This document shows, in pieces, positions 10,768 to 63,980 of a DNA stretch of 64,000 bases (position 1 is the stretch's first letter; the number at the start of each line of letters is the position of its first letter). The notes beneath the pieces were generated by a model. The model was not told where the DNA came from, ran no database searches, and saw nothing but the letters and a program-made list of their open reading frames with translations. Source of the DNA: a bacterium (GTDB lineage Bacteria; Patescibacteriota; Patescibacteriia; JACQRZ01). A program made the position numbers and the translations under genes. Location of the stretch: positions 16,337-80,336 of the forward strand of contig JAUYIE010000020.1 of NCBI GenBank assembly GCA_030688365.1, given 5' to 3'.

Positions 10768-10792
10768 TTTGCATACACCCTAACCCCAAATA

Positions 10793-10810
10793 ATGTTCCA
10801 CGTGGAACAT
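10793..10810. promoter_or_regulatory. parS-like palindrome, site 3
   Basis: AATGTTCCACGTGGAACATT, a 20-bp perfect palindrome. It is 43 bp from site 2. Confidence 0.6.
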
Positions 10811-10837
10811 TTTGGTAACATATCGCGTGACTCGGAA

Positions 10838-10855
10838 ATGTTCCACGTGGAACAT
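10838..10855. promoter_or_regulatory. parS-like palindrome, site 4
   Basis: AATGTTCCACGTGGAACATT. It is 45 bp from site 3. Confidence 0.6.
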
Positions 10856-10912
10856 TTTGAGGATATAAAGTACAAAAAACCAAATAAAAATAAGGATTCG
10901 TGTTTAGAATCC

Positions 10913-53730: not shown

Positions 53731-55029
53731 ATGATGAAAGATGAATTATTGGGCATATTGAATGAGTGGAACTTTTGGAATCAAAAGCGTGATGTTGGGA
53801 TTAAACGCCCTTTTTATCTTGAAAAAATGAAGGATTTTAGCCAGACAGGGCAAGTGGTGGTGCTTTCAGGGGCGCGTCGTTCCGGAAAATCTACTTTAAT
53901 GCTCCAATATACGGCGGATCTCATTGCTGGTGGGTTGGATGCAAAAAATACCTTGTATATTAATTTTGAAGATTCTCGTTTTTCCGGTGAGCTTACCTTG
54001 GCGTTATTGCAACAGATATATGATGTATATAGAGCAGAACTGGCACCGGATACTCCGAATATTTTTATTGACGAAATACAACTTATTCCCGGGTGGGAGC
54101 GTTTTGTACGAGCGATACATGAACGTAAGGAAGCGACGCTGTTTGTGTCAGGATCCAATGCTCAAATGTTGAGCGATGAATTTGGTGCTTCGCTGACAGG
54201 ACGGCATCTTATGATAGAAGTTTTCCCTCTTGATTTTTCTGAATTTTTAGCATTTCATGATATATATCTTAAGAATAATCTTGAGATTGTTTCCAAAAAA
54301 GGCATTATACAGAAATTTTTTGAAGAATATCTGTTATTTGGCGGATTTCCTAAGGTAGTTCTTTCGCAAGAAAAACAAGAAATACTTCGTCAGTATTTTG
54401 ATGATGTGCTCGCACGCGATATCGTAGGTCGCTATCATGTACGTAATACTGTCACGCTCAAGGCACTCGCTCAATACTACGAAACAAACATATCCTCCTT
54501 GATGACATACAGTAGTGTTCGTAAGTTTTTGAAGACTCCGCTTGCGACTGTGCAACGATTTTCCGGATACTATACCTATGCGTATTTGATTTTCTTTGTA
54601 AAAAAGTTTGCCTATTCTCTTAAGGAACAAGAAGTGAATCCGCGCAAAGTGTATAGTATTGATACTGGCTTACGTAATGCGGTGAGTGGGGGGATGATAC
54701 CTGATAAAGGAAAGTTGTATGAGAATTGTGTGTACCTTGAGCTGTTGCGGAAACATGGCAATAATGTTTTTTATTGGAGTGATAAAGTGGAATGCGATTT
54801 TGTGGTTAAAGAATCCGATGGTATGCACGCCTATCAAGTCGTATATGCTATGTCGCATGCGAGCACCCGAGAGCGGGAATTTGCCGGCCTTGCCTCAGCG
54901 CTCAAAAGTTTTGACCTTAAAGAAGGGGTCATTGTTACCGGAGAGGAAGAAGGGTTGGAAGAATATGATGGGAAGATAATACATCTTGTGCCGTTGTGGA
55001 AATGGCTGTTGGGGTTTCCTGTCTCTTGA
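53731..55029 (+). CDS. AAA+ ATPase of the COG1373 / DUF4143 type
   Basis: Walker A VVLSGARRSGKSTL. Walker B IFIDEIQ. C-terminal DUF4143-like region. Confidence 0.7.
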   Translation: MMKDELLGILNEWNFWNQKRDVGIKRPFYLEKMKDFSQTGQVVVLSGARRSGKSTLMLQYTADLIAGGLDAKNTLYINFEDSRFSGELTLALLQQIYDVYRAELAPDTPNIFIDEIQLIPGWERFVRAIHERKEATLFVSGSNAQMLSDEFGASLTGRHLMIEVFPLDFSEFLAFHDIYLKNNLEIVSKKGIIQKFFEEYLLFGGFPKVVLSQEKQEILRQYFDDVLARDIVGRYHVRNTVTLKALAQYYETNISSLMTYSSVRKFLKTPLATVQRFSGYYTYAYLIFFVKKFAYSLKEQEVNPRKVYSIDTGLRNAVSGGMIPDKGKLYENCVYLELLRKHGNNVFYWSDKVECDFVVKESDGMHAYQVVYAMSHASTREREFAGLASALKSFDLKEGVIVTGEEEGLEEYDGKIIHLVPLWKWLLGFPVS

Positions 55030-55066
55030 CACATCTTTTCATATATGATACAATAATGTCATATAT

Positions 55067-55702
55067 ATGAAAAGTAAGAAAAATCTCTTGGAACAATTAA
55101 AAACACTTCCGCACTTCAATAAAGATGTGATTTTTCAGCTGGGTACACATCTTGGACTTGAAGATTCCACTATTGATACCTATATCAGCCGATTTTTAAA
55201 AAATAGAGAGATCTATCGGCTCAAAAACGGACTGTATATATCCGCTGATTTTTTTGAAAAGAACAGGAACGATATTTCGTATTCGTTTTATGTGGCCAAT
55301 ATCTTGCGTACGCCATCATATGTCAGTTCGTGGACGGCGTTGCAGTATTTCAATCTCACGACAGAGGCGATACATGGGATTACTTGCGTGACGCCAAAAG
55401 TAACACGAGACTATCAGACACAGGTGGAAAATTTCAGTTATCAGTCTATAGACAAAAAACTGTTTTCCGGATTTTCGTTGGGAACGGGGACATTTGATTT
55501 TTTTATTGCCTCTCCCGCAAAAGCTTTGTTTGACTTGCTGTATTTCAAGACGTATCAGTTTCGCGGTGTGACATTAAAACAGATACCGACATTGATTGAA
55601 GAATTACGCATTGACTTTGATGAGATGGACAAGAAAGAACAGAAAATTTTTTATAAAATGATTAAAAAGAGGATTTTGAAGTGGACGAAAAAGAGAAGGT
55701 AA
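55067..55702 (+). CDS. AbiEi-antitoxin-like wHTH protein (orphan)
   Basis: The N-terminus (LLEQLKTLPHFNKDVIFQLG...IYRLKNGLYI) resembles the AbiEi N-terminal domain (I.R..RG.Y). No co-directional AbiEii partner. Confidence 0.4.
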   Translation: MKSKKNLLEQLKTLPHFNKDVIFQLGTHLGLEDSTIDTYISRFLKNREIYRLKNGLYISADFFEKNRNDISYSFYVANILRTPSYVSSWTALQYFNLTTEAIHGITCVTPKVTRDYQTQVENFSYQSIDKKLFSGFSLGTGTFDFFIASPAKALFDLLYFKTYQFRGVTLKQIPTLIEELRIDFDEMDKKEQKIFYKMIKKRILKWTKKRR

Positions 55703-55770
55703 AAGCAATATGTCTGCGTTGTTATCTTGCGAGTTGGATGATTTGCTGAAGTAGCTCTATATATCCCTCC

Positions 55771-56772
55771 TCAAATCTCCCTCTCAAACTCTTTGAATCT
55801 TGATCCTGTGTATGTTTTCGCGAGTTTACGATATTTTTCGTACAGTGTGTTGTCTGAAATCGTACTTGGATCAAGCGTTGGAGCATTTTTGAAATAAAAA
55901 GGATCATCCCTATCTTCCATCCAGTATATGATTTGTGCTACCAAATCATCTTTGTGGTGCGCCAGAATACCTTCTTTTGTCTCATCTGTGGTCACAATGC
56001 CCAGCTCTAGTAGTTTGTTATAAAATCTTTCAGCCAGTTCATCTCCCATTTCATATGATTTGTCTACGGCAATAGCAAGATCAAATAGCCGGACATGATC
56101 AAATTCCCATTGCCAATCTTTGATGCCATCAATTGTTCCATTGCCATACATCGCTTCAAACTCCACTTGCAATCGCAACGCCTTCATGACTAATTTTGAT
56201 CGTAGACCTTGCTCTCCCTTTGAATAACTATACCACCAGTTGCCTTTGTACTCTGTGGGGCGGATAATTTTATTTTTTAGATCGTTTATGGCCTCTGGGG
56301 TTGCGATGATTTCTTCGTCTAGAATCAATACTTCATTTAACACAAAGTCGCGAGATAAAAAATATTCTGATAATGATTCTTTGCGAATACCGTGGCCTTG
56401 CGCGCTGTCATTGGACATATATCGTTGCTCAAGCATGTCTATCACAGCGGGATTTGGGTGAGCGTTTATGTCTGTAATGACAACAATATCAACATCACGC
56501 GGTTTTAAAACTTTGTTACCCAACAGCCGAAGTGCAACATTTCGCGCGACACCTCCCGCGATACCATAGCCCTTGGGTAGCTCTATTGGTAATTTTTCTT
56601 CAAGGGGTATATGTACGAGGGTACGCATGTTTTCTGTGCCATGTTCTTTGTCGTCAATGGGGATGCGCTGTATGGTATATACCAAGTCATGTTTATCCAA
56701 TATTTCTTTAACCCCATCGCTTAATTCAGGGGAAACAAATGTTTCGGTTGGGATTGTTTCAAATTTTTCCAT
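55771..56772 (-). CDS. Nucleotidyltransferase-fold protein related to class II tRNA nucleotidyltransferase / poly(A) polymerase head domain (divergent)
   Basis: YGIAGGVARNVALRLLGNKVLKPRDVDIVV parallels the GGxVRDxLLG...PKDxDxxT motif of class II CCA enzymes, with Asn in place of Asp. It is co-directional and adjacent to cca. Confidence 0.5.
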   Translation of the reverse strand: MEKFETIPTETFVSPELSDGVKEILDKHDLVYTIQRIPIDDKEHGTENMRTLVHIPLEEKLPIELPKGYGIAGGVARNVALRLLGNKVLKPRDVDIVVITDINAHPNPAVIDMLEQRYMSNDSAQGHGIRKESLSEYFLSRDFVLNEVLILDEEIIATPEAINDLKNKIIRPTEYKGNWWYSYSKGEQGLRSKLVMKALRLQVEFEAMYGNGTIDGIKDWQWEFDHVRLFDLAIAVDKSYEMGDELAERFYNKLLELGIVTTDETKEGILAHHKDDLVAQIIYWMEDRDDPFYFKNAPTLDPSTISDNTLYEKYRKLAKTYTGSRFKEFEREI

Positions 56773-56800
56773 AGCGATACATCAGTAAATAGTGTTTTTT

Positions 56801-58033
56801 CTACTGCAACGATTGCACATACTTCATCGCTTCCTCTTTGGTAGAAAGTGAGCGCGAAAGTGCGAGGGTTTCTACCTGTTCCAAGATTTCCTTGAACTTC
56901 GGTCCCGGTTTTATGCCAAGACTATGGAGATCGGTGCCGGTGATTAAGGGGAGTTTTGGCAAGGGATTTGTCTGGAGATCTTCTATGATTTTTTGAAAAC
57001 CTATTGTCTCCGGCGAGCCAGTACCAAATCTCACTTTCGCAAGTGCGAGGATTGCTTGTTGATTATTTTTTACTGCAAGTCGGCGCAAGGCAATCTCGTC
57101 CAGTGAAGACAACGCCTCAATATTTTTTACAATATCGTTAATATCAGTAATCTCTTTGTTGGAAAGTTTTATTGTTTTGCCGAGTGTCGTCACCTCTTGG
57201 TCAGCCATGATAATCGCCCACGTAGTCATGGCTGGCGCATCGGACGTGGATTCCAGTCGGGTGAGTTGTTCCTTCATTTCCGGGTTGATATCTAACCATG
57301 GCAATAAAAGTGGTAACAGGCCACATTCTTTCATAAGTTGAAGACCATGAAGGGGCATGGAAGTCGCAAGCATTTTTCTGATTTCATTGGTTGAACGTTC
57401 TTGTTTCAGGGTTAGTGCGTTATCGTGGTGCGTTTTTATTGCGTCATAGAGCGACGGATCAATATCAAAATCAAACTGGCAGGCAAATCGTATCGCACGA
57501 ATCAGCCATAATGCATCTCCCGCTTTTGTCGGGTCATTCGTAGCACGAATAATGCCCGCTTTGATATCATCCATTCCGCCCACGAGATCAATGACCTCTT
57601 TGGTAAGCGGATCAATCAAGAGCGCGTTCATGGTGAAATCGCGCCGTGCTACATCTTCCTCTTTGGTGGATGAAAATGCTCCGCCATCCCCCCGATATGT
57701 AGAGACCTCGTAGCAGTCCCCATTCAATAAAACTCTGACCATGCCGTATTCAGCGGCTTGCATCACTGTTCTGGGAAACAGTTTGGCGACTTGTTCTGGT
57801 AGCGCGTTTGTCGTCATATCAAAATCTTTTGGTTCCACGCCAAGAACCATGTCGCGGACGCAACCGCCAGCGAGATATGCCTCATACCCTGAATCGCGGA
57901 GATTCTGCGCCACATTCCGCGCGCCTTCAAAAAATTTATTTTCCGGCAGTGTGAGTGCCTCTTTATTAGCTATTTGTTCGTTGCTTGCGTCCCCAAGACG
58001 AAATTGAGAGCGTTCCATGTGTTGTTCAGGCAT
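56801..58033 (-). CDS. cca: tRNA nucleotidyltransferase (CCA-adding enzyme / class II PolyA_pol family)
   Basis: LAGGCVRDMVLGVEPKDFDMTT head-domain motif, RFACQFDF, and a 410-aa body. Confidence 0.8.
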   Translation of the reverse strand: MPEQHMERSQFRLGDASNEQIANKEALTLPENKFFEGARNVAQNLRDSGYEAYLAGGCVRDMVLGVEPKDFDMTTNALPEQVAKLFPRTVMQAAEYGMVRVLLNGDCYEVSTYRGDGGAFSSTKEEDVARRDFTMNALLIDPLTKEVIDLVGGMDDIKAGIIRATNDPTKAGDALWLIRAIRFACQFDFDIDPSLYDAIKTHHDNALTLKQERSTNEIRKMLATSMPLHGLQLMKECGLLPLLLPWLDINPEMKEQLTRLESTSDAPAMTTWAIIMADQEVTTLGKTIKLSNKEITDINDIVKNIEALSSLDEIALRRLAVKNNQQAILALAKVRFGTGSPETIGFQKIIEDLQTNPLPKLPLITGTDLHSLGIKPGPKFKEILEQVETLALSRSLSTKEEAMKYVQSLQ

Positions 58034-58226
58034 AATAAAGACGGTGAAGTTATAATACTGTTTAGTATGTCATGTATTGTGAAAAAGGAAAATGAAGAAA
58101 AGAAAAAAGCCCGCTGACATTATTTGTCGCGGGGCATTTCTATAATTACGATGATAGAGTGTACACTACTTGCCTGGTATACACTCAAGCGTCGCAACGA
58201 TAGGGGAGAATATGTTTTATACTTCC

Positions 58227-58310
58227 TGTTTCATCCTTTCGGAATCATCAGCACGGATACACATCCGTGAACAGGTGGGGGAGTTTCGATTATGAAACTC
58301 CCCAAACTTG
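58227..58310 (+). ncRNA. Repeated structured element, copy 1 (conserved leader plus two hairpins)
   Basis: TGTTTCATCCTTTCGGAATCATCAG, then hairpin CACGGA-TACACA-TCCGTG, then hairpin GGGGAGTTTC-GATTAT-GAAACTCCCC. Strand is uncertain. Confidence 0.3.
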
Positions 58311-58542
58311 TTTATTCTTTGGACGTATTCCTTTCGATCCAAAGCTTTTTTTGTTCCTCCTTTCTTGCTTGTTCGAGGTTTAGAATGTCCTCTTTTAAAT
58401 TCGGAAGTGGTTTTGTTTACAGTGCACTATGAATAAACTGGTGGTTGTATATATTGTAGTGGAATAGACTTTTCATTGTGGTATAGACACCCCAAATGGA
58501 ATGGTGATATACTTTGAGTGATTTACTATTATCTATATATAT

Positions 58543-58899
58543 ATGGAAAAAGGAGGAGGATCGTTTGAAAATACGCCGGAACAGCCAAAAACAGAATTTG
58601 AAAAGGCTAAAGAAGAGGTTTCCGCAGTAGCGACAGACTGGGAATATATAAGCGAAATAGAAAAGATGTCCAGACAAGAATTATCACGAGGTGAATCACC
58701 AAAAAAAGTAGCCGACGATATTTATAGAATTTGCAGACAAGAATCTATAGAAATAGAGAAAGAGATTCATCTGCTAGAAACGAAACTTGAGGATAAGCAA
58801 TTTGACGGAGTCCGCGAACCTCTTGTTGAAGTCCTTGCTAAGATACAAAATGAGATAAATAAACTTGAAAGAGATGAACGAAATGGATCTAATCCGTAA
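58543..58899 (+). CDS. Hypothetical coiled-coil protein (118 aa)
   Basis: ORF followed by a strong bidirectional terminator. Confidence 0.4.
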   Translation: MEKGGGSFENTPEQPKTEFEKAKEEVSAVATDWEYISEIEKMSRQELSRGESPKKVADDIYRICRQESIEIEKEIHLLETKLEDKQFDGVREPLVEVLAKIQNEINKLERDERNGSNP

Positions 58900-58931
58900 T
58901 TGATTTTAAAGATTCAATAATTTTTATATAA

Positions 58932-58960
58932 AAATGGTCCCTTTGGGGGCCATTTATGTT
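58932..58960. terminator. Bidirectional rho-independent terminator
   Basis: AATGGTCCC-TTTG-GGGGCCATTT hairpin flanked by an A-run and T-runs, between convergent genes. Confidence 0.55.
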
Positions 58961-58971
58961 GGGTTGTTTTT

Positions 58972-59436
58972 CTAATAACTTTTTCCGGATTGTAGTACTA
59001 TTTGTCTGATAAACAACATGCCGGTGGCAGTATCTCCGGCGTATAGACGTGCTTCAATACTGTTTAGCAGACTTCTGATGTCAAGTCCGTACCAGTATTG
59101 GGCTTTGTCGAACACATCTTTGCCAGAACAATTGCATTGTTCTTGAAATTGGAACAACTTTGCGGAAATTTTGAACTTTGAATGGTATTCGTGCATCAAA
59201 CTCGCTATGTCTTTTCCCGCTATCCGATGGTTAGTGAGTACTGACAAAATCTGATCGGCTTCATTACTGGTGTATGTTGAGGGTTGTGTGTCAATAGGAA
59301 TCCCCTCAATTACCAGGCCATCTTGTGAAGACATAATAGTTATCTTCCCAAAAGACGTGAATACCGTTGCTTTTTTCTTCTCATAATCTATGCACGGCGC
59401 TCTTTCCTTTGCGCCATCTTGTTGTAATGAACACAT
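58972..59436 (-). CDS. Hypothetical protein (154 aa)
   Basis: ORF with no recognisable motif. Confidence 0.4.
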   Translation of the reverse strand: MCSLQQDGAKERAPCIDYEKKKATVFTSFGKITIMSSQDGLVIEGIPIDTQPSTYTSNEADQILSVLTNHRIAGKDIASLMHEYHSKFKISAKLFQFQEQCNCSGKDVFDKAQYWYGLDIRSLLNSIEARLYAGDTATGMLFIRQIVLQSGKSY

Positions 59437-59574
59437 TTTTTTTCTCCTTTTTTAATAACAAAGGTTTACATTAACCTTTATGGCAATCACTTTGGCATAT
59501 TTGACCGGTTTTGTCAAGAATATCTGGGTAAAAGAAAAAAGCTCAAACAGTGCAATTGACTGTTCGAGCTTAAA

Positions 59575-59955
59575 TTAATCGGTGTTCTGCCTCTGTGCAT
59601 CCGTGCCAAGGTCTTCAAGTTCCAGAACCATACGCTTCACTCTCTTGAAACCAAGAAAGCGGTACATACGGTCTTTTACTCTCCAGTCGCAGAGCTTTGG
59701 GTCGGTGACCGTCTCTGCTTCTGAATACAGTGGCCTTAGACCAAGATCGCATAAGCGGGCGAGTACGCTATACGGTGCGACGACAATGCAGTCGTTGTAA
59801 CCGCCTTCGCGTATCCGCCGTACGATTGTCTCCGCGCTATTCCAGACACGATGGTCTTCGAAGACTTTGACATCTTCTCCGAACATTCTTTTCAACGCGC
59901 CCATTTGGACGCCATTCATGCTGTGCTGTGATACCCAGCATATTCTTTTTGGCAT
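59575..59955 (-). CDS. Hypothetical protein (126 aa)
   Basis: The start was set to MPKRICWV, preceded by a strong RBS (AAAGGAGGTATT-ATG). GC content is markedly higher than in the core genome. Confidence 0.5.
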   Translation of the reverse strand: MPKRICWVSQHSMNGVQMGALKRMFGEDVKVFEDHRVWNSAETIVRRIREGGYNDCIVVAPYSVLARLCDLGLRPLYSEAETVTDPKLCDWRVKDRMYRFLGFKRVKRMVLELEDLGTDAQRQNTD

Positions 59956-60055
59956 AATACCTCCTTTACTCTGTGCCACAGAGTATTTATTGCTACAGTC
60001 GAGCATGCATCACTTGCCTGACACATACTCAAATCTAGCAACAAATGTGGAATCT

Positions 60056-60134
60056 TATTTCGTCCTTTCGGACTCATCAGTGGAAGTACACACTTCCAGA
60101 TAAGAGAGATCATTTTAATTGATCTCAATTTTTT
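60056..60134 (+). ncRNA. Repeated structured element, copy 2
   Basis: TATTTCGTCCTTTCGGACTCATCAG, then hairpin TGGAAG-TACACA-CTTCCA, then hairpin GAGATCA-TTTTAAT-TGATCTC, then a T-run. Confidence 0.3.
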
Positions 60135-60217
60135 TGCCCTGTAAAAAAGAACTATGATTTGGCAAGCGTGATACCTACCGATGGGAGCCGTTTTGATTTT
60201 GGCTCCGCGTGTAAAAA

Positions 60218-60721
60218 CTAATGGGATCCGTTCCATTTTTTAAAACCTGCAGATTCGGGTATTCTTCGTTCGAAGACGTTTTCTGCAAAATTTTCTATCA
60301 GTTTTTGGACACTGGCAATCTCTACTTCTGTAAAAGTTGGCTTAGTGCCTTCTTTCTCGAAGTCGAGAGTAAATCCACGAGAGGCATTCCAGCCACCCCA
60401 AGAAGGACTTCGGGGAAAATCGTTTTCTGGAGTGCCCCAAAATTCCCGGTCATTAGTGTCGACTAAAGGGCCGACGTCCTCATGCGAAAAACTCCATCCA
60501 TCAGCCTGCATGAGAGCTGATAAACTGGCAATCAATGTGACAATATCATCATATTTTTTGGGTCGTGTGAATCCAAGAGAAATGGTGACAGTCTGTTGAT
60601 TGGCCATGCACTCATCTTCGCCCCAATTTGGTTCAGATGAATCACCCCAAAAGGTAATTCGTGTTGAGTTTTGGGGATAAGACTCTGTTTCCGAAAAATC
60701 AATTCTCAATGGTAGGTACAT
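60218..60721 (-). CDS. Hypothetical protein (167 aa), higher-GC island
   Basis: ORF with Trp-rich segments (SPSWGGWNASRGF). No motif. Confidence 0.45.
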   Translation of the reverse strand: MYLPLRIDFSETESYPQNSTRITFWGDSSEPNWGEDECMANQQTVTISLGFTRPKKYDDIVTLIASLSALMQADGWSFSHEDVGPLVDTNDREFWGTPENDFPRSPSWGGWNASRGFTLDFEKEGTKPTFTEVEIASVQKLIENFAENVFERRIPESAGFKKWNGSH

Positions 60722-61029
60722 TATTGTACCTCCTTTGAGGAAGAAAATAATTCAGAAATTTTCTCAACCAGCTGGGCCTGAGTAATTTTTTCTGCGTTCT
60801 TTTTCGTAGACCCGCAAAGTAAATACTCATTCCCATTCTGAAATGCGTCCTGCATTTCAGCCTCCCCAACACTCCTCCTTGTGGGGTGGTCTCCTGCATG
60901 AAAAAATCTTTCCCAGAACCCGCTCATGCCGCGGATGCTGGAAATCTGGAACGTACGACCATCGGGCGTCGTCCATTCCAAATTCTTCTGCGTGGCCACT
61001 AGGTAGGCCAGCACCATGTTTGCATTCAT
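60721..61029 (-). CDS. Hypothetical protein (102 aa), higher-GC island
   Basis: ORF ATGA-coupled to the downstream gene. RBS GGAGGACAAAAAATG. Confidence 0.45.
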   Translation of the reverse strand: MNANMVLAYLVATQKNLEWTTPDGRTFQISSIRGMSGFWERFFHAGDHPTRRSVGEAEMQDAFQNGNEYLLCGSTKKNAEKITQAQLVEKISELFSSSKEVQ

Positions 61030-62365
61030 TTTTTGTCCTCCTACGACAAAAGATAAAATATTACTTTTAAATTTACTCTTGATTTAAGATAATTCTGTTT
61101 GGGTTGTAACACCCCGACACAATGACCTTAAGAAAGAGGGGAAACATTTGTTTCCCATTCTAACCCTTTTAATGTACGATGATGAATCGCGAATCACCTA
61201 TTACCTCCTTTCGCGTGCTATAATATTTTTTAATGAGAGAGTCGTCAGTCATCATTATTGGCTCATCGTTGATTGAATCAACTAGGCTTATAGTGATCGA
61301 CTTCTCTCCCAGCGATTGTTTGGTTCGCCAGCACCTTCGATATTCTTATATCTATCCATGTGTTGTTGTGTAAACAACTCATTTCAAAATACTCTCCAAA
61401 AATCTCGAACACCTTCATGTTTACGGGAAGCTTGAGAGACTTTCTGTAAACAATCCTCATCTCGCAGTAGGGTGGTTAAGGACACCGTCCTTTCTTTATA
61501 TCTTTTGTGATTTCAAAATCTCTAACCCTCGATTTTGTTCTATTTGGGTCCTCTGGTAATGAGATCCAGATGGAGTACTACTACTGAGCACTTTTTAACA
61601 AGGTTACCTTCCCTTGAACATACTACATACCAACTTCGACGGTTATATTCATGTTAAATATATGACCAATCGCCACACTTATATCGTCTTACGCAGGTAA
61701 GCGGGAAAACGCTGTGTAAAACAGAACTTTTAATTCATTTGAGATACTGTTCTCAAACATTCTTGCATATGTGTCCGTAATTGATCTTGTTGTAACAGTG
61801 CTGTGCTTGTGGCCGCTCTGTCGCTGTCAATTGTGGCATTTCAAGAATTTAGAATCATCGTTTCTACCCTAGTGTGATCCCTGTCAGATCACGCTGTGTT
61901 GGTTTACCCCCGAATCGCTAAGATCCTGCAGGTTTCTTTTCAACCCGGCCCGCGAAGGGTAAGGTCAGCCAACGTTCCGGTGTCAGAACCATCTTCACGG
62001 GATGAGCGGTCAACTCTCGGGTGACGGGCGTTCATGCTTTGCCACTGCTTTTGGGTGAGACAATTTCATCGTTTACACATGACGATTATTTTTGTGTTCA
62101 CTAAAACTTTCTGTACAGTATCATGAAGTAAGTTGTTTTTTGTTAAGTATACGCGATATCAGAAATACTATCTCGCAGACTCTAACCTCTCAGGGTGGCT
62201 TAGTGTAATAACACCCACTAACTGGTTGCCCTGTTTGAGATCGTTCGCTCCGATCTCGTTTTTTTGGCGTCTTTCCATGTAGCAGCTTTCGGTTGTGCCG
62301 GAACCGGGCTGTCGCGCGCATGCGTCATATGTACCTCCTTTCGCATGAGCAATCTTTTCCCGCTA

Positions 62366-62680
62366 CTAATTGTTGCTGAATGTGATATCGGGAGAAGTAC
62401 GCGGGATGTACTTCCAGATAATTTCTTCTGGTTCATGCTTGAGCAATCCCCAGACCATATCGGCGATTTCGGCGTCAGTCCACTGGAGGACTTCTGCCAA
62501 AATTTCCCCTTTTGTTTCCGGTCTTCCAATACCGACAAATTCTCCTACGCCATCTTTGAGAATGGCAGTAAGAATATTTGCCAGCGTTTGGTGTTCTCCT
62601 GCCAACAATAGGTCGTCAAGACAAATCATTGGTTCGGGGATCAGGCCAGAGGAGATGAACTTTCTATTGATATACCACAT
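62366..62680 (-). CDS. Hypothetical protein (104 aa), translationally coupled to the vWA gene
   Basis: Its start lies 2 nt after the stop of the upstream vWA gene. It overlaps the alternative ORF 62218..62538, which is judged spurious. Confidence 0.4.
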   Translation of the reverse strand: MWYINRKFISSGLIPEPMICLDDLLLAGEHQTLANILTAILKDGVGEFVGIGRPETKGEILAEVLQWTDAEIADMVWGLLKHEPEEIIWKYIPRTSPDITFSNN

Positions 62681-62681
62681 A

Positions 62682-63980
62682 TCAATTCACCCCCTTTCCA
62701 AATTTCATGTTATCGTTTACGAGATGGTGGCTCGTAGCGATATTTTTTAGTGCTTCGTTCTCTGAAGCGACACTGAAAACATGAAGCTTGATATCGCCTA
62801 GCGGTTCATGGGTTCCCAATGAGTCATCCCCATCAGTAACCATGATGATATCGCAGCGATGGAATCTAGCCTTATCAGCGTTAATATCCTTAACTGCTTG
62901 TGATATCGCTGCACTAAAATTTGTACTACCACCACTATATGTTCCTTTGTTTTTTATCATGTCGAGCAGCTCACGCCCTTGCTGCTCATTTCTTGCTTCC
63001 TTCAGGTCGTGGGGCGATCCGTCAAAAAGTCGTAAAAAGAGTTCTGCTTCTCCTCTGATTACTGCCTTCACACGGTTCAGCAAGATTCCTCCTGCTTTCA
63101 CGACCCTTTTACCGTCTCCCATAGAACCTGAACAGTCAACGAGCAGGTAAATTAATTGTTTTTGCTCGTCAACCTTTACATACTCACGTACAGGTAGACG
63201 TTTTTCGACAGCTCTTTGCCAAAAAATTTCATCAGGCAAACCATGTGCAACACGGGCGACTTTTGGTAATTCAGAGAAATCTCTGATACCTCTAGTGCGC
63301 ACGAATGCCGTGGGTTCCAGCGAAGATTTTGTACTTCTTTTTTTGCTGGTTTTAAGTTCAACCAGATCATCAAGAAGATGCGAAAGTCTCACTAATTCCC
63401 ATTCGGTTGACTGGCCGATTTTTTCAGCAACCTCAACGACTGACAACGGGCTATTCCCGTTCGGTGCTTTTGTGTCCAAAAGCTCCTGGTCGATGTCATC
63501 AAGGTTCTGGGCTGCCTCTAGGCAATCAGCGGTTTGATTGCTGAGTTCCTCTCCGTCTCTTTCGAGAAAGATAGGTAGCGCATCAGCTTCTTCACCGCTA
63601 CCACCACTTTCAGATTTTGACTTTTCAGCCATCATTTTCAGTAAGGCGGCTGCCTTTTCAAGCGCCGTCCCTGGCAAGTTATCCAAGGTTTTCTTTTCAG
63701 CAAGTGCCTTGAGAAACCCCCGGACGTTTTGGTGATATTTAAGTAATTTATCTCTGTCCAGAAGTGGCTGCTCCTGTATGAGATCTTCTACTTGTTTTTC
63801 CACCTGTGCCTCATCCATGACCGTTTGTTCTCCGCCGCGAGCGACGTTGAGCAGATCCTGGAAGAAGGCGGGTGCTACAGCCGGCACCTTGGCTTTCCTG
63901 CAAAACATTTCAATCTCTGGTGGGTGTGCAGGTGTAAACCCATCAGGGAGGTGAGTACGCATTAACGGTTTCATTGGCAC
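62682..63980 (-). CDS. von Willebrand factor type A (vWA) domain protein
   Basis: MIDAS motif DCSGSMGDG, then ...TNFSAAI...IIMVTDGDD. The N-terminal region is Glu-rich. Confidence 0.7.
   Translation of the reverse strand: MPMKPLMRTHLPDGFTPAHPPEIEMFCRKAKVPAVAPAFFQDLLNVARGGEQTVMDEAQVEKQVEDLIQEQPLLDRDKLLKYHQNVRGFLKALAEKKTLDNLPGTALEKAAALLKMMAEKSKSESGGSGEEADALPIFLERDGEELSNQTADCLEAAQNLDDIDQELLDTKAPNGNSPLSVVEVAEKIGQSTEWELVRLSHLLDDLVELKTSKKRSTKSSLEPTAFVRTRGIRDFSELPKVARVAHGLPDEIFWQRAVEKRLPVREYVKVDEQKQLIYLLVDCSGSMGDGKRVVKAGGILLNRVKAVIRGEAELFLRLFDGSPHDLKEARNEQQGRELLDMIKNKGTYSGGSTNFSAAISQAVKDINADKARFHRCDIIMVTDGDDSLGTHEPLGDIKLHVFSVASENEALKNIATSHHLVNDNMKFGKGVN

Follow-up and report, generated by a model that had tools for sequence, protein, structure and literature searches.

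In bacterial and prophage genomes, clustered hammerhead ribozymes flank individual genes or short runs of genes of variable identity and cleave in vitro (PMC3088659; PMC6155905). A role in transcript processing has been proposed for these clusters (PMC3088659), by which long transcripts would be cut into gene-length mRNAs (Perreault et al. 2011; de la Pena et al. 2017), and what bacterial hammerheads do biologically is still described in the field as an open question (PMC6155905). A related arrangement exists as an engineered part, RiboJ, in which the hammerhead from the tobacco ringspot virus satellite RNA (sTRSV) is joined to a 23-nt hairpin, raising mRNA approximately 2-fold and protein 2-10-fold (PMC6206723). 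The present analysis concerns a 64,000-nt stretch of a Patescibacteria (candidate phyla radiation, CPR) genome (contig JAUYIE010000020.1; hereafter the window), which contains two copies of a structured repeat. The stretch belongs to a 92-kb contig of a metagenome-assembled genome with locus tags Q8P11_, and the named organisms among the best hits of its ValRS are all Patescibacteria. Both are read here as type III hammerhead ribozymes on the minus strand, copy 1 at 58225-58275 and copy 2 at 60053-60105, each lying within a leader module, with a probability of about 0.9, and both would presumably cleave in vivo. The arrangement is of a type already described for bacteria and prophages; within the literature searched, no link between hammerheads and Patescibacteria was found.

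The repeat was first described on the plus strand, by a sequence-only reading, as a conserved leader followed by a hairpin, a spacer, a second hairpin and a T-rich tail. All of these parts are present, including the CACGGA/TCCGTG and TGGAAG/CTTCCA stems, the TACACA loop, the 7-nt spacer and the T7 tail of copy 2, and 22 of 25 leader positions are identical between 58227-58251 and 60056-60080. What had been taken for a plus-strand leader is, however, the catalytic core and stem II of a hammerhead on the minus strand, where both copies read CUGAUGA-(G/U)UCC-GAAA-GGA(C/U)-GAAA, with a stem II of 3-4 bp capped by a GAAA loop. The TACACA hairpin corresponds to stem I, its loop being UGUGUA on the minus strand, and the spacer consists of the 5' strand of stem III together with the cleavage-site nucleotide. 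The nucleotides that follow the final GAAA pair with this strand: copy 2 has UCUUAU/AUAAGA and copy 1 has CCUGU/ACAGG. With loops closing stems I and II and stem III left open, both copies have a type III topology. The second hairpin and T-rich tail, placed at the far end of the repeat in the plus-strand reading, lie 5' of stem III on the minus strand and are read here as an upstream hairpin, not as a terminator.

The catalytic core is complete in both copies, with C3 U4 G5 A6 N7 G8 A9 and G12 A13 A14 provided by CUGAUGA...GAAA, and three helices are arranged around it with stem III open, as supported by folding, by alignment to R1, a covariance model described below, and by 120 relatives in which every variable pair covaries. 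The A15.1-U16.1 pair is present and nucleotide 17 is not G (AUC|U in copy 2, GUU|C in copy 1). Copy 2 has UGGAAG(U)/(A)CUUCCA around a GUGU loop as stem I and GUCC-GAAA-GGAC as stem II; copy 1 has CACGGA(U)/(A)UCCGUG as stem I, again around a GUGU loop, and UCC-GAAA-GGA, bordered by a U10.1.U11.1 mismatch, as stem II. GAAA follows stem II in each case. Site-specific self-cleavage, yielding 2',3'-cyclic phosphate and 5'-OH ends, is predicted from the sequence at C60099|U60098 in copy 2 (C17) and at U58270|C58269 in copy 1 (U17), 1829 nt apart. The conservation of both loop 1 (UGUGUA) and loop 2 (GAAA) suggests a tertiary contact between them, of the kind that would support activity at physiological Mg2+.

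The pattern CTGATGA-N4-GAAA-N4-GAAA occurs at only these two sites in 64 kb, where 0.03 would be expected, so that the core match is beyond chance, and the exact hammerhead core is confined to the minus strand. At the Rfam gathering threshold, the whole window returned three tRNAs and no ribozyme. In E-value mode, RF00008 (Hammerhead_3, clan CL00010) was the best ribozyme match for both copy 2 (32.1 bits, E 2.2e-4) and copy 1 (31.0 bits, E 4.7e-4), and a scan of the whole window in this mode reported copy 2 alone (E 0.0057). Both copies share with RF00008 the full CUGAUGA...GAAA core, the A15.1-U16.1 pair, a nucleotide other than G at position 17 and three helices with stem III open, and differ from it in the length of loops 1 and 2, which at only 4-6 nt fall short of the consensus of the model. 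The minimum free energy (MFE) structure of copy 1 is the three-way junction.

Membership of a wider family was examined with the pattern CTGATGANTCCGAAAGGANGAAA, any bases being allowed at positions 10.1 and 11.1, run on public viral contigs and bacterial genomes; the figures for bacterial genomes rest on the matches listed, and totals are lower bounds. Matches were obtained in 34 viral contigs and in at least 119 stretches of bacterial genomes. The core with stem II was found at no fewer than 164 sites outside the window and, when the two window copies are included, an identical type III layout is present at 155 of 166. An alignment of 120 unique non-window members is gap-free over 57 nt, with standard pairs in 87% of pair cells compared to 35-47% with slid partners, and a covariation score of 0.675 compared to at most 0.12 for slid versions. 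Stem III was not part of the sequence selection; its four core-proximal pairs are paired in approximately 99-100% of members, with up to five pair types. Among 131 unique members, U16.1 is present in 130, nucleotide 17 is always C, A or U, and loop 1 is UGUGUA in 62.

The covariance model R1 was built from the 120 members and run over the whole window with filters off. Copy 2 scored 75.2 bits (E 3e-23) and copy 1 73.9 bits (E 8e-23), both over the full length, and the third-best match reached 14 bits. This gap indicates that the window contains exactly two copies and that both are full members of the subfamily. The sequence-only reading had taken the covarying stems, together with the conserved loop and leader, as the sign of a selected RNA (or DNA) structure, and had proposed a covariance model built from further copies. 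It was right in that a selected RNA structure is present and that a large family is recovered by such a model. Two orthologous loci in other assemblies also keep the ribozyme: L162 and L163, in which a flanking protein is 83-86% identical, score 75.2 and 72.6 bits. Both sites in the window are to be annotated as hammerhead ribozymes on the minus strand.

The low Rfam scores are shared by the subfamily. About 25 relatives in 14 loci were tested (L041, L079, L118, L143, L153, L119, L071, L086, L080, L167, L036, L039, L078 and L144), and all of them stay below the gathering scores of every Rfam hammerhead family, so that the subfamily would be overlooked in standard genome annotation. Patescibacteria metagenome-assembled genomes make up about three quarters of the genome records among the matches listed. 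A co-oriented open reading frame (ORF) with a Shine-Dalgarno sequence lies within 400 nt downstream in 57 of 101 members, compared to 22 in the divergent control, and both window copies conform.

A boxA-like motif (GTTCTTTGAAA, ATCTTTGAAAA or GTTGTTTGACAA) was observed 4-11 nt past stem III in 32 of 125 members, against 4 of 125 in the control window. CPR or other bacterial genomes account for all 32 cases and viral contigs for none, and several are followed by a ribosome-binding site (RBS) and ATG; examples within L035-L153 are L036:6357, L051, L075, L144 and L153. No rRNA genes were found in the 14 boxA-like loci in which they were looked for. The window copies have no boxA-like motif downstream; a similar TAGTTCTTTTTTACA is located approximately 35 nt upstream of the hairpin that precedes copy 2 (~60138-60152) and is kept at both orthologous loci.

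Three records of the viral collection, L011 (366 nt), L012 (457 nt) and L033 (322 nt), contain hammerheads whose stem II and loop 2 (GUCC-GAAA-GGAC) are identical to those found here, and in L011 loop 1 is UGUGUA as well, as in the window copies. Judged by size, the three may be plant viroid-like or satellite RNAs. Viroid-like and satellite RNAs are replicons processed from multimers, whereas the window ribozymes are DNA-encoded, single-copy leader elements.

Immediately upstream of each ribozyme on the minus strand lies a hairpin, termed here hairpin A. In copy 2 it is a 7-bp stem, GAGAUCA-AUUAAAA-UGAUCUC (60106-60126), that abuts the 5' strand of stem III with a gap of 0 nt, and in copy 1 a stem of 10-11 bp, GGGGAGUUUC-AUAAUC-GAAACUCCCC (58278-58303), located 2 nt upstream of stem III. 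Such a hairpin is over-represented in the family. Directly upstream, 45% of 124 members have a perfect stem of 8 bp or more, compared to 18% in a control window at 100-144 nt upstream and 10% in one downstream; for the members in viral contigs the share is 76%. Of the hairpins of at least 6 bp, 62 of 93 end 0-3 nt from the stem III strand. At the orthologous loci the hairpin A loop differs at 4-5 of 7 positions and the stem is still paired, through changes of A-U to G.U and U-A to U.G. Hairpin A would protect the 3' end of the upstream RNA, and may possibly act as a folding insulator.

The repeat is longer than first described, with a second hairpin, hairpin B, located approximately 20-35 nt downstream of the ribozyme on its minus-strand 3' side in both copies. 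Hairpin B is a 22-bp interrupted structure in which an outer stem of 7-10 bp and a small internal loop precede a 14-bp inner stem. In copy 2 (59986-60045, minus strand) the loop is GGCAAG, and the hairpin is kept at both orthologous loci; copy 1 (58144-58199, minus strand) has the same 14+6+14 geometry and the same loop, with five compensatory pair changes. The letters common to the two copies are GTTGC...TTGAGT-N6-CAGGCAAGT...CTC. When both copies and the two orthologues are considered together, the 22 pairs are 95.5% paired and five are changed on both sides between the copy lineages, compared to 17-44% paired and 0-1 two-sided changes in slid controls. As these amount to effectively two independent sequences, the covariation is suggestive, not conclusive.

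Hairpin B appears to be restricted to this lineage, judging from the sequences searched. Its motif has no other occurrence in the window and is absent from the 153 hammerhead loci checked, and the Rfam E-value scan returned no family for it. A pattern joining the ribozyme core, N30-60 and CAGGCAAG gave no match in viral or JGI metagenome contigs, and a looser one, with GGCAAG at its end, matched 11 loci in JGI metagenomes, none with a hairpin-B-like structure. Several identities were considered and dropped. The loop GCAGGCAAG is similar to that of a SacY/LicT-type ribonucleic antiterminator (RAT), but its spacing does not match, and neither a BglG-family gene nor one of the phosphotransferase system is present. 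No acceptable -10 or -12 element supports a sigma-70 or sigma-54 promoter on either strand. The attC consensus RYYYAAC/GTTRRRY, compared by eye, is not matched by the ends GTTGC(G/T)A / T(C/A)G(T/C)AAT. Pairing with ribozyme loop 1 is feasible in copy 1 only. The sequence-only reading had suggested protein-binding structured sites; for the repeats as then stated this does not hold, and it is conceivable for hairpin B only.

All stems of the window ribozymes and of hairpin A are Watson-Crick and fold equally well on both strands; thermodynamics therefore cannot separate the strands. The minus strand was chosen because of the asymmetric core, the G.U changes in the orthologues and the G.U pairs of hairpin B, and the flanking genes are likewise on the minus strand. 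A plus-strand reading would make the elements structured 3' ends, either Rho-independent terminators or small RNAs, formed by a hairpin and a T-run. On that strand AATTTTTTTG does come after hairpin A in copy 2, as does a T-rich stretch in copy 1, both hairpins were flagged as terminator-like, and the corresponding A-run is kept at both orthologous loci. However, the 13 invariant core nucleotides make sense on the minus strand only, and in the wider family hairpin A usually lacks a preceding A-run. The sole stem substitutions of the orthologues, in hairpin A and stem I, give G.U pairs on the minus strand and would be C.A mismatches on the plus strand, as would the 5-6 G.U pairs of hairpin B. 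No plus-strand gene ends upstream of either site. A plus-strand intrinsic terminator was accordingly rejected, and plus-strand 3' ends of any kind are very unlikely. The proposal of a small RNA or 3'-UTR family fails with them, the elements being in 5'-leader or intercistronic positions of minus-strand genes.

Both hammerhead modules are leader elements of minus-strand genes. Copy 2 lies 111 nt past a co-oriented 167-aa gene (60218-60721), itself preceded by a 102-aa gene (60721-61029), and about 100 nt before the ATG at 59955 of a gene for a 126-aa hypothetical protein (59575-59955, Q8P11_03565), the start of which was re-assigned to the ATG behind an RBS. This RBS, GGAGG (59960-59964), immediately follows an 8-bp hairpin (59967-59985) that is invariant in both orthologues. 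The transcription unit that comprises copy 2 and the 126-aa gene ends at a strong intrinsic terminator (59539-59571), with a 13-bp stem and T-run. The order of the flanking genes around copy 2 is kept at both orthologous loci, the 167-aa gene holding the same place in L162. Homologues of the 126-aa protein with 64-70% identity at seven other loci have no hammerhead upstream; the ribozyme is thus not tied to this gene family, in agreement with the published remark that the identities of hammerhead-flanked genes are not constant (PMC3088659).

Copy 1 lies in the divergent region between a plus-strand 118-aa gene (58543-58899) and a minus-strand gene for a divergent CCA tRNA nucleotidyltransferase (56801-58033), which is followed by a 333-aa, weakly nucleotidyltransferase-like gene (55771-56772). 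Between hairpin B of copy 1 and the CCA-enzyme gene, an intrinsic-terminator-like hairpin is present at 58097-58135 on the minus strand (GCCCCGCGAC...GUCAGCGGGC, then a U-run); its weak Rfam matches to ctRNA_p42d and to an L20_leader-like element reflect the terminator shape only. The nearest homologue of the CCA enzyme is 41% identical, and because no homologue exceeds this identity copy 1 has no orthologous comparison.

At position 10.1-11.1, the canonical pair is G-C, with N7 of G10.1 a metal ligand, and hits with a mispair here were rejected by Perreault et al. (PMC3088659). Copy 2 has the G-C pair, and copy 1 has U.U (58235 and 58246). Such a mispair beside the core might mark copy 1 as a decayed, inactive relic of a duplicated module, leaving copy 2 alone functional, an idea to which the lack of a convincing upstream promoter, the terminator before the next gene and the unavailability of an orthologous locus could also be fitted. 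Yet copy 1 retains every one of the 13 core nucleotides, the A15.1-U16.1 pair and intact stems I and III, although its stems have diverged completely from those of copy 2, which requires continued selection. Moreover, among the 131 unique members the position is G-C in 90, U.U in 36 and G.U in 5, and A-U, U-A and C-G never occur. Nucleotide A17 accompanies U.U in 19 of 36 members and G-C in 9 of 90 (chi-square p ~7e-7, members treated as unrelated). Because 36 of 131 relatives share U.U and the five G.U are the only other state besides G-C, the copy 1 variant is regarded as tolerated or tuned by selection, not as decay, and a relic is unlikely.

The interval between the copies bears on two further explanations. 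The sequence-only reading noted that the copies bracket a block of three small genes, which are indeed present as the 126-aa gene, a 154-aa gene (58972-59436, minus strand) and the plus-strand 118-aa gene; the block is not one transcription unit, as the interval has its own terminators and a gene on the opposite strand. The suggestion that the copies are recombination or attachment sites, attC-like or similar, bounding a mobile three-gene cassette would suit their direct orientation 1829 nt apart, the evident duplication of the whole module from hairpin A to hairpin B, and the small accessory genes of an island containing AbiEi/AbiEii, AAA_14-DUF4143 and MoxR-VWA genes. Against this, no integrase, recombinase or transposase was found among the neighbouring genes, the hairpin B ends misfit the attC R''/R' consensus and the gene order flanking copy 2 is kept at the orthologous loci. 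The letters conserved between the copies are exactly those of the ribozyme core, and the complete, compensated divergence of the stems points to selection at the RNA level and not on a DNA site. Cassette boundaries are thus highly improbable.

Two co-oriented hammerheads could alternatively release a 1829-nt RNA by double cleavage, with a 5'-OH and a 2',3'-cyclic phosphate, that is then ligated into a circular or spliced, retrozyme- or viroid-like product. Such end chemistry suits RtcB-type ligases. No RtcB was found in the annotated part of the window, and the sites are separated by the minus-strand terminator at 59539-59571, by a hairpin at ~58915-58960 (seen by eye and unlisted by the terminator scan) and by the opposite-strand 118-aa gene. 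For clustered bacterial hammerheads this possibility was raised by Perreault et al., who could not detect such products (PMC3088659). At this locus a circular RNA is extremely unlikely.

The surrounding island includes, at 53731-58033 and 62682-63980, an AAA_14/DUF4143 ATPase, an AbiEi-like protein (PADLOC E 4e-37), the CCA enzyme with the 333-aa, weakly nucleotidyltransferase-like protein, and a MoxR-type ATPase preceding a VWA protein; the three small hypotheticals, the 102- and 167-aa genes and a 1.3-kb stretch free of genes also belong to it, and beyond the window (L161:1-7600) follow AbiEii with a partner, and TrmB. The island is accessory and rich in defence or toxin-antitoxin-like and RNA-related genes. 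PHROGs and PADLOC searches of the neighbouring proteins returned AbiEi and the tRNA nucleotidyltransferase only, with no phage structural protein or integrase, and blastn of 56800-61100 against INPHARED phages gave no match.

Some further features of the window were recorded. In a tight minus-strand cluster, between a 104-aa gene (62366-62680) and the 102-aa gene, approximately 1.3 kb (61030-62330) contains no ORF of more than 60 aa. Its GC content rises to 0.46-0.55 around 61775-62075, and it includes three 'GGTTAGA' motifs and two similar RBS-like boxes, GCGAAAGGAGGTA, each followed by an ORF of 35-45 codons. Rfam gave no match to this region at E<=5, and folding was unremarkable (z mostly -2 to +1) except for a terminator-like hairpin at 61139-61156. 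The leader of the 154-aa gene (59434-59518, minus strand) weakly matches the freshwater-2 RNA (RF02980), at 32.3 bits where 49.9 is the cutoff (E 0.018 in a 2.5-kb search and 0.46 over the whole window); an A-rich RBS region provides much of the score, and the match is probably due to chance. A match to the microRNA precursor family mir-2009 at 10783-10863 on the minus strand (34.4 bits against a cutoff of 90, E 7e-4) is presumably a long intergenic hairpin in a bacterial genome.

Several observations weigh against the assignment of both copies as active hammerheads in leader modules. Both score below the RF00008 gathering score (31-32 against 48.5 bits), and the MFE structure of copy 2 is an alternative fold, the hammerhead fold (-15.6 kcal/mol) lying 1.1 kcal/mol above it. 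Copy 1, with U10.1.U11.1 in place of G-C, could be slow or condition-dependent. No convincing promoter was found upstream of copy 1, and an intrinsic terminator stands between its module and the CCA-enzyme gene, so that the transcript carrying it is not certain.

The locus resembles the clustered hammerheads of bacteria and prophages (Perreault et al. 2011; de la Pena et al. 2017) in having co-oriented copies within 2 kb, small non-conserved hypotheticals between them and an accessory setting. It differs in being an island of a Patescibacteria chromosome with no integrase or recognisable phage genes nearby, in that the intervening genes do not form one operon, and in the extra hairpin B that accompanies each ribozyme. 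The resemblance to RiboJ lies in a type III hammerhead followed by a hairpin just upstream of an RBS; in RiboJ, cleavage gives all transcripts the same structured 5' end. Set beside the engineered part, hairpin B has a far longer stem, 22 bp and interrupted, and a loop of conserved sequence, which suggests an additional specific function, and the natural module has hairpin A in addition. Slightly beyond the literature searched are the sub-threshold short-loop subfamily, the recurrent U.U, the upstream hairpin enriched in the family and the lineage-specific hairpin B.

In the mechanism proposed, each ribozyme would be the centre of a leader module of approximately 170 nt, in the order hairpin A, hammerhead, hairpin B. 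On transcription of the minus strand the ribozyme would fold and cut co-transcriptionally after C60099 in copy 2 or U58270 in copy 1. The upstream RNA would then end in hairpin A and about 7 nt bearing a 2',3'-cyclic phosphate, with the hairpin as a shield against 3' exonucleases, and the downstream RNA would open with a 5'-OH, after which come the compact body of the ribozyme, hairpin B and the gene. In copy 2, the downstream RNA would continue through the small hairpin and RBS into the 126-aa gene, its transcript being severed from that of the 167-aa gene. For copy 1, it would continue into the terminator or attenuator and then the CCA-enzyme operon; the copy 1 leader may be an attenuator, or its module may be part of a short non-coding, self-cleaving transcript. 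The net effect would be to punctuate or insulate transcripts, giving the downstream gene a fixed, structured 5' end whatever lies upstream. Such a processing or insulation role is the function we lean towards, by a modest degree.

The locus does not settle the role of bacterial hammerheads. It provides a clean example outside recognisable prophages, in which conserved hairpins flank both transcript ends, and in this way supports processing or insulation. More broadly, a large subfamily of canonical type III hammerheads goes unannotated under the Rfam gathering score, a natural U10.1.U11.1 variant recurs where the metal-binding G-C pair is expected, and a covarying hairpin with a conserved loop travels with the ribozyme. 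A bolder and doubtful proposal is that the unit of hairpin A, hammerhead and hairpin B is a natural, duplicated 'ribozyme insulator' cassette of the ultra-small Patescibacteria. Its flanking hairpins would set the protected ends, its GGCAAG loop would dock a lineage-specific factor that co-regulates the 126-aa gene and the CCA/nucleotidyltransferase operon, and the short-loop subfamily would be a general operon-punctuation device of the CPR. If this were true, the CPR would possess a punctuation device that is invisible at the Rfam threshold, abundant in their genomes among the matches listed and often followed by a boxA-like motif.

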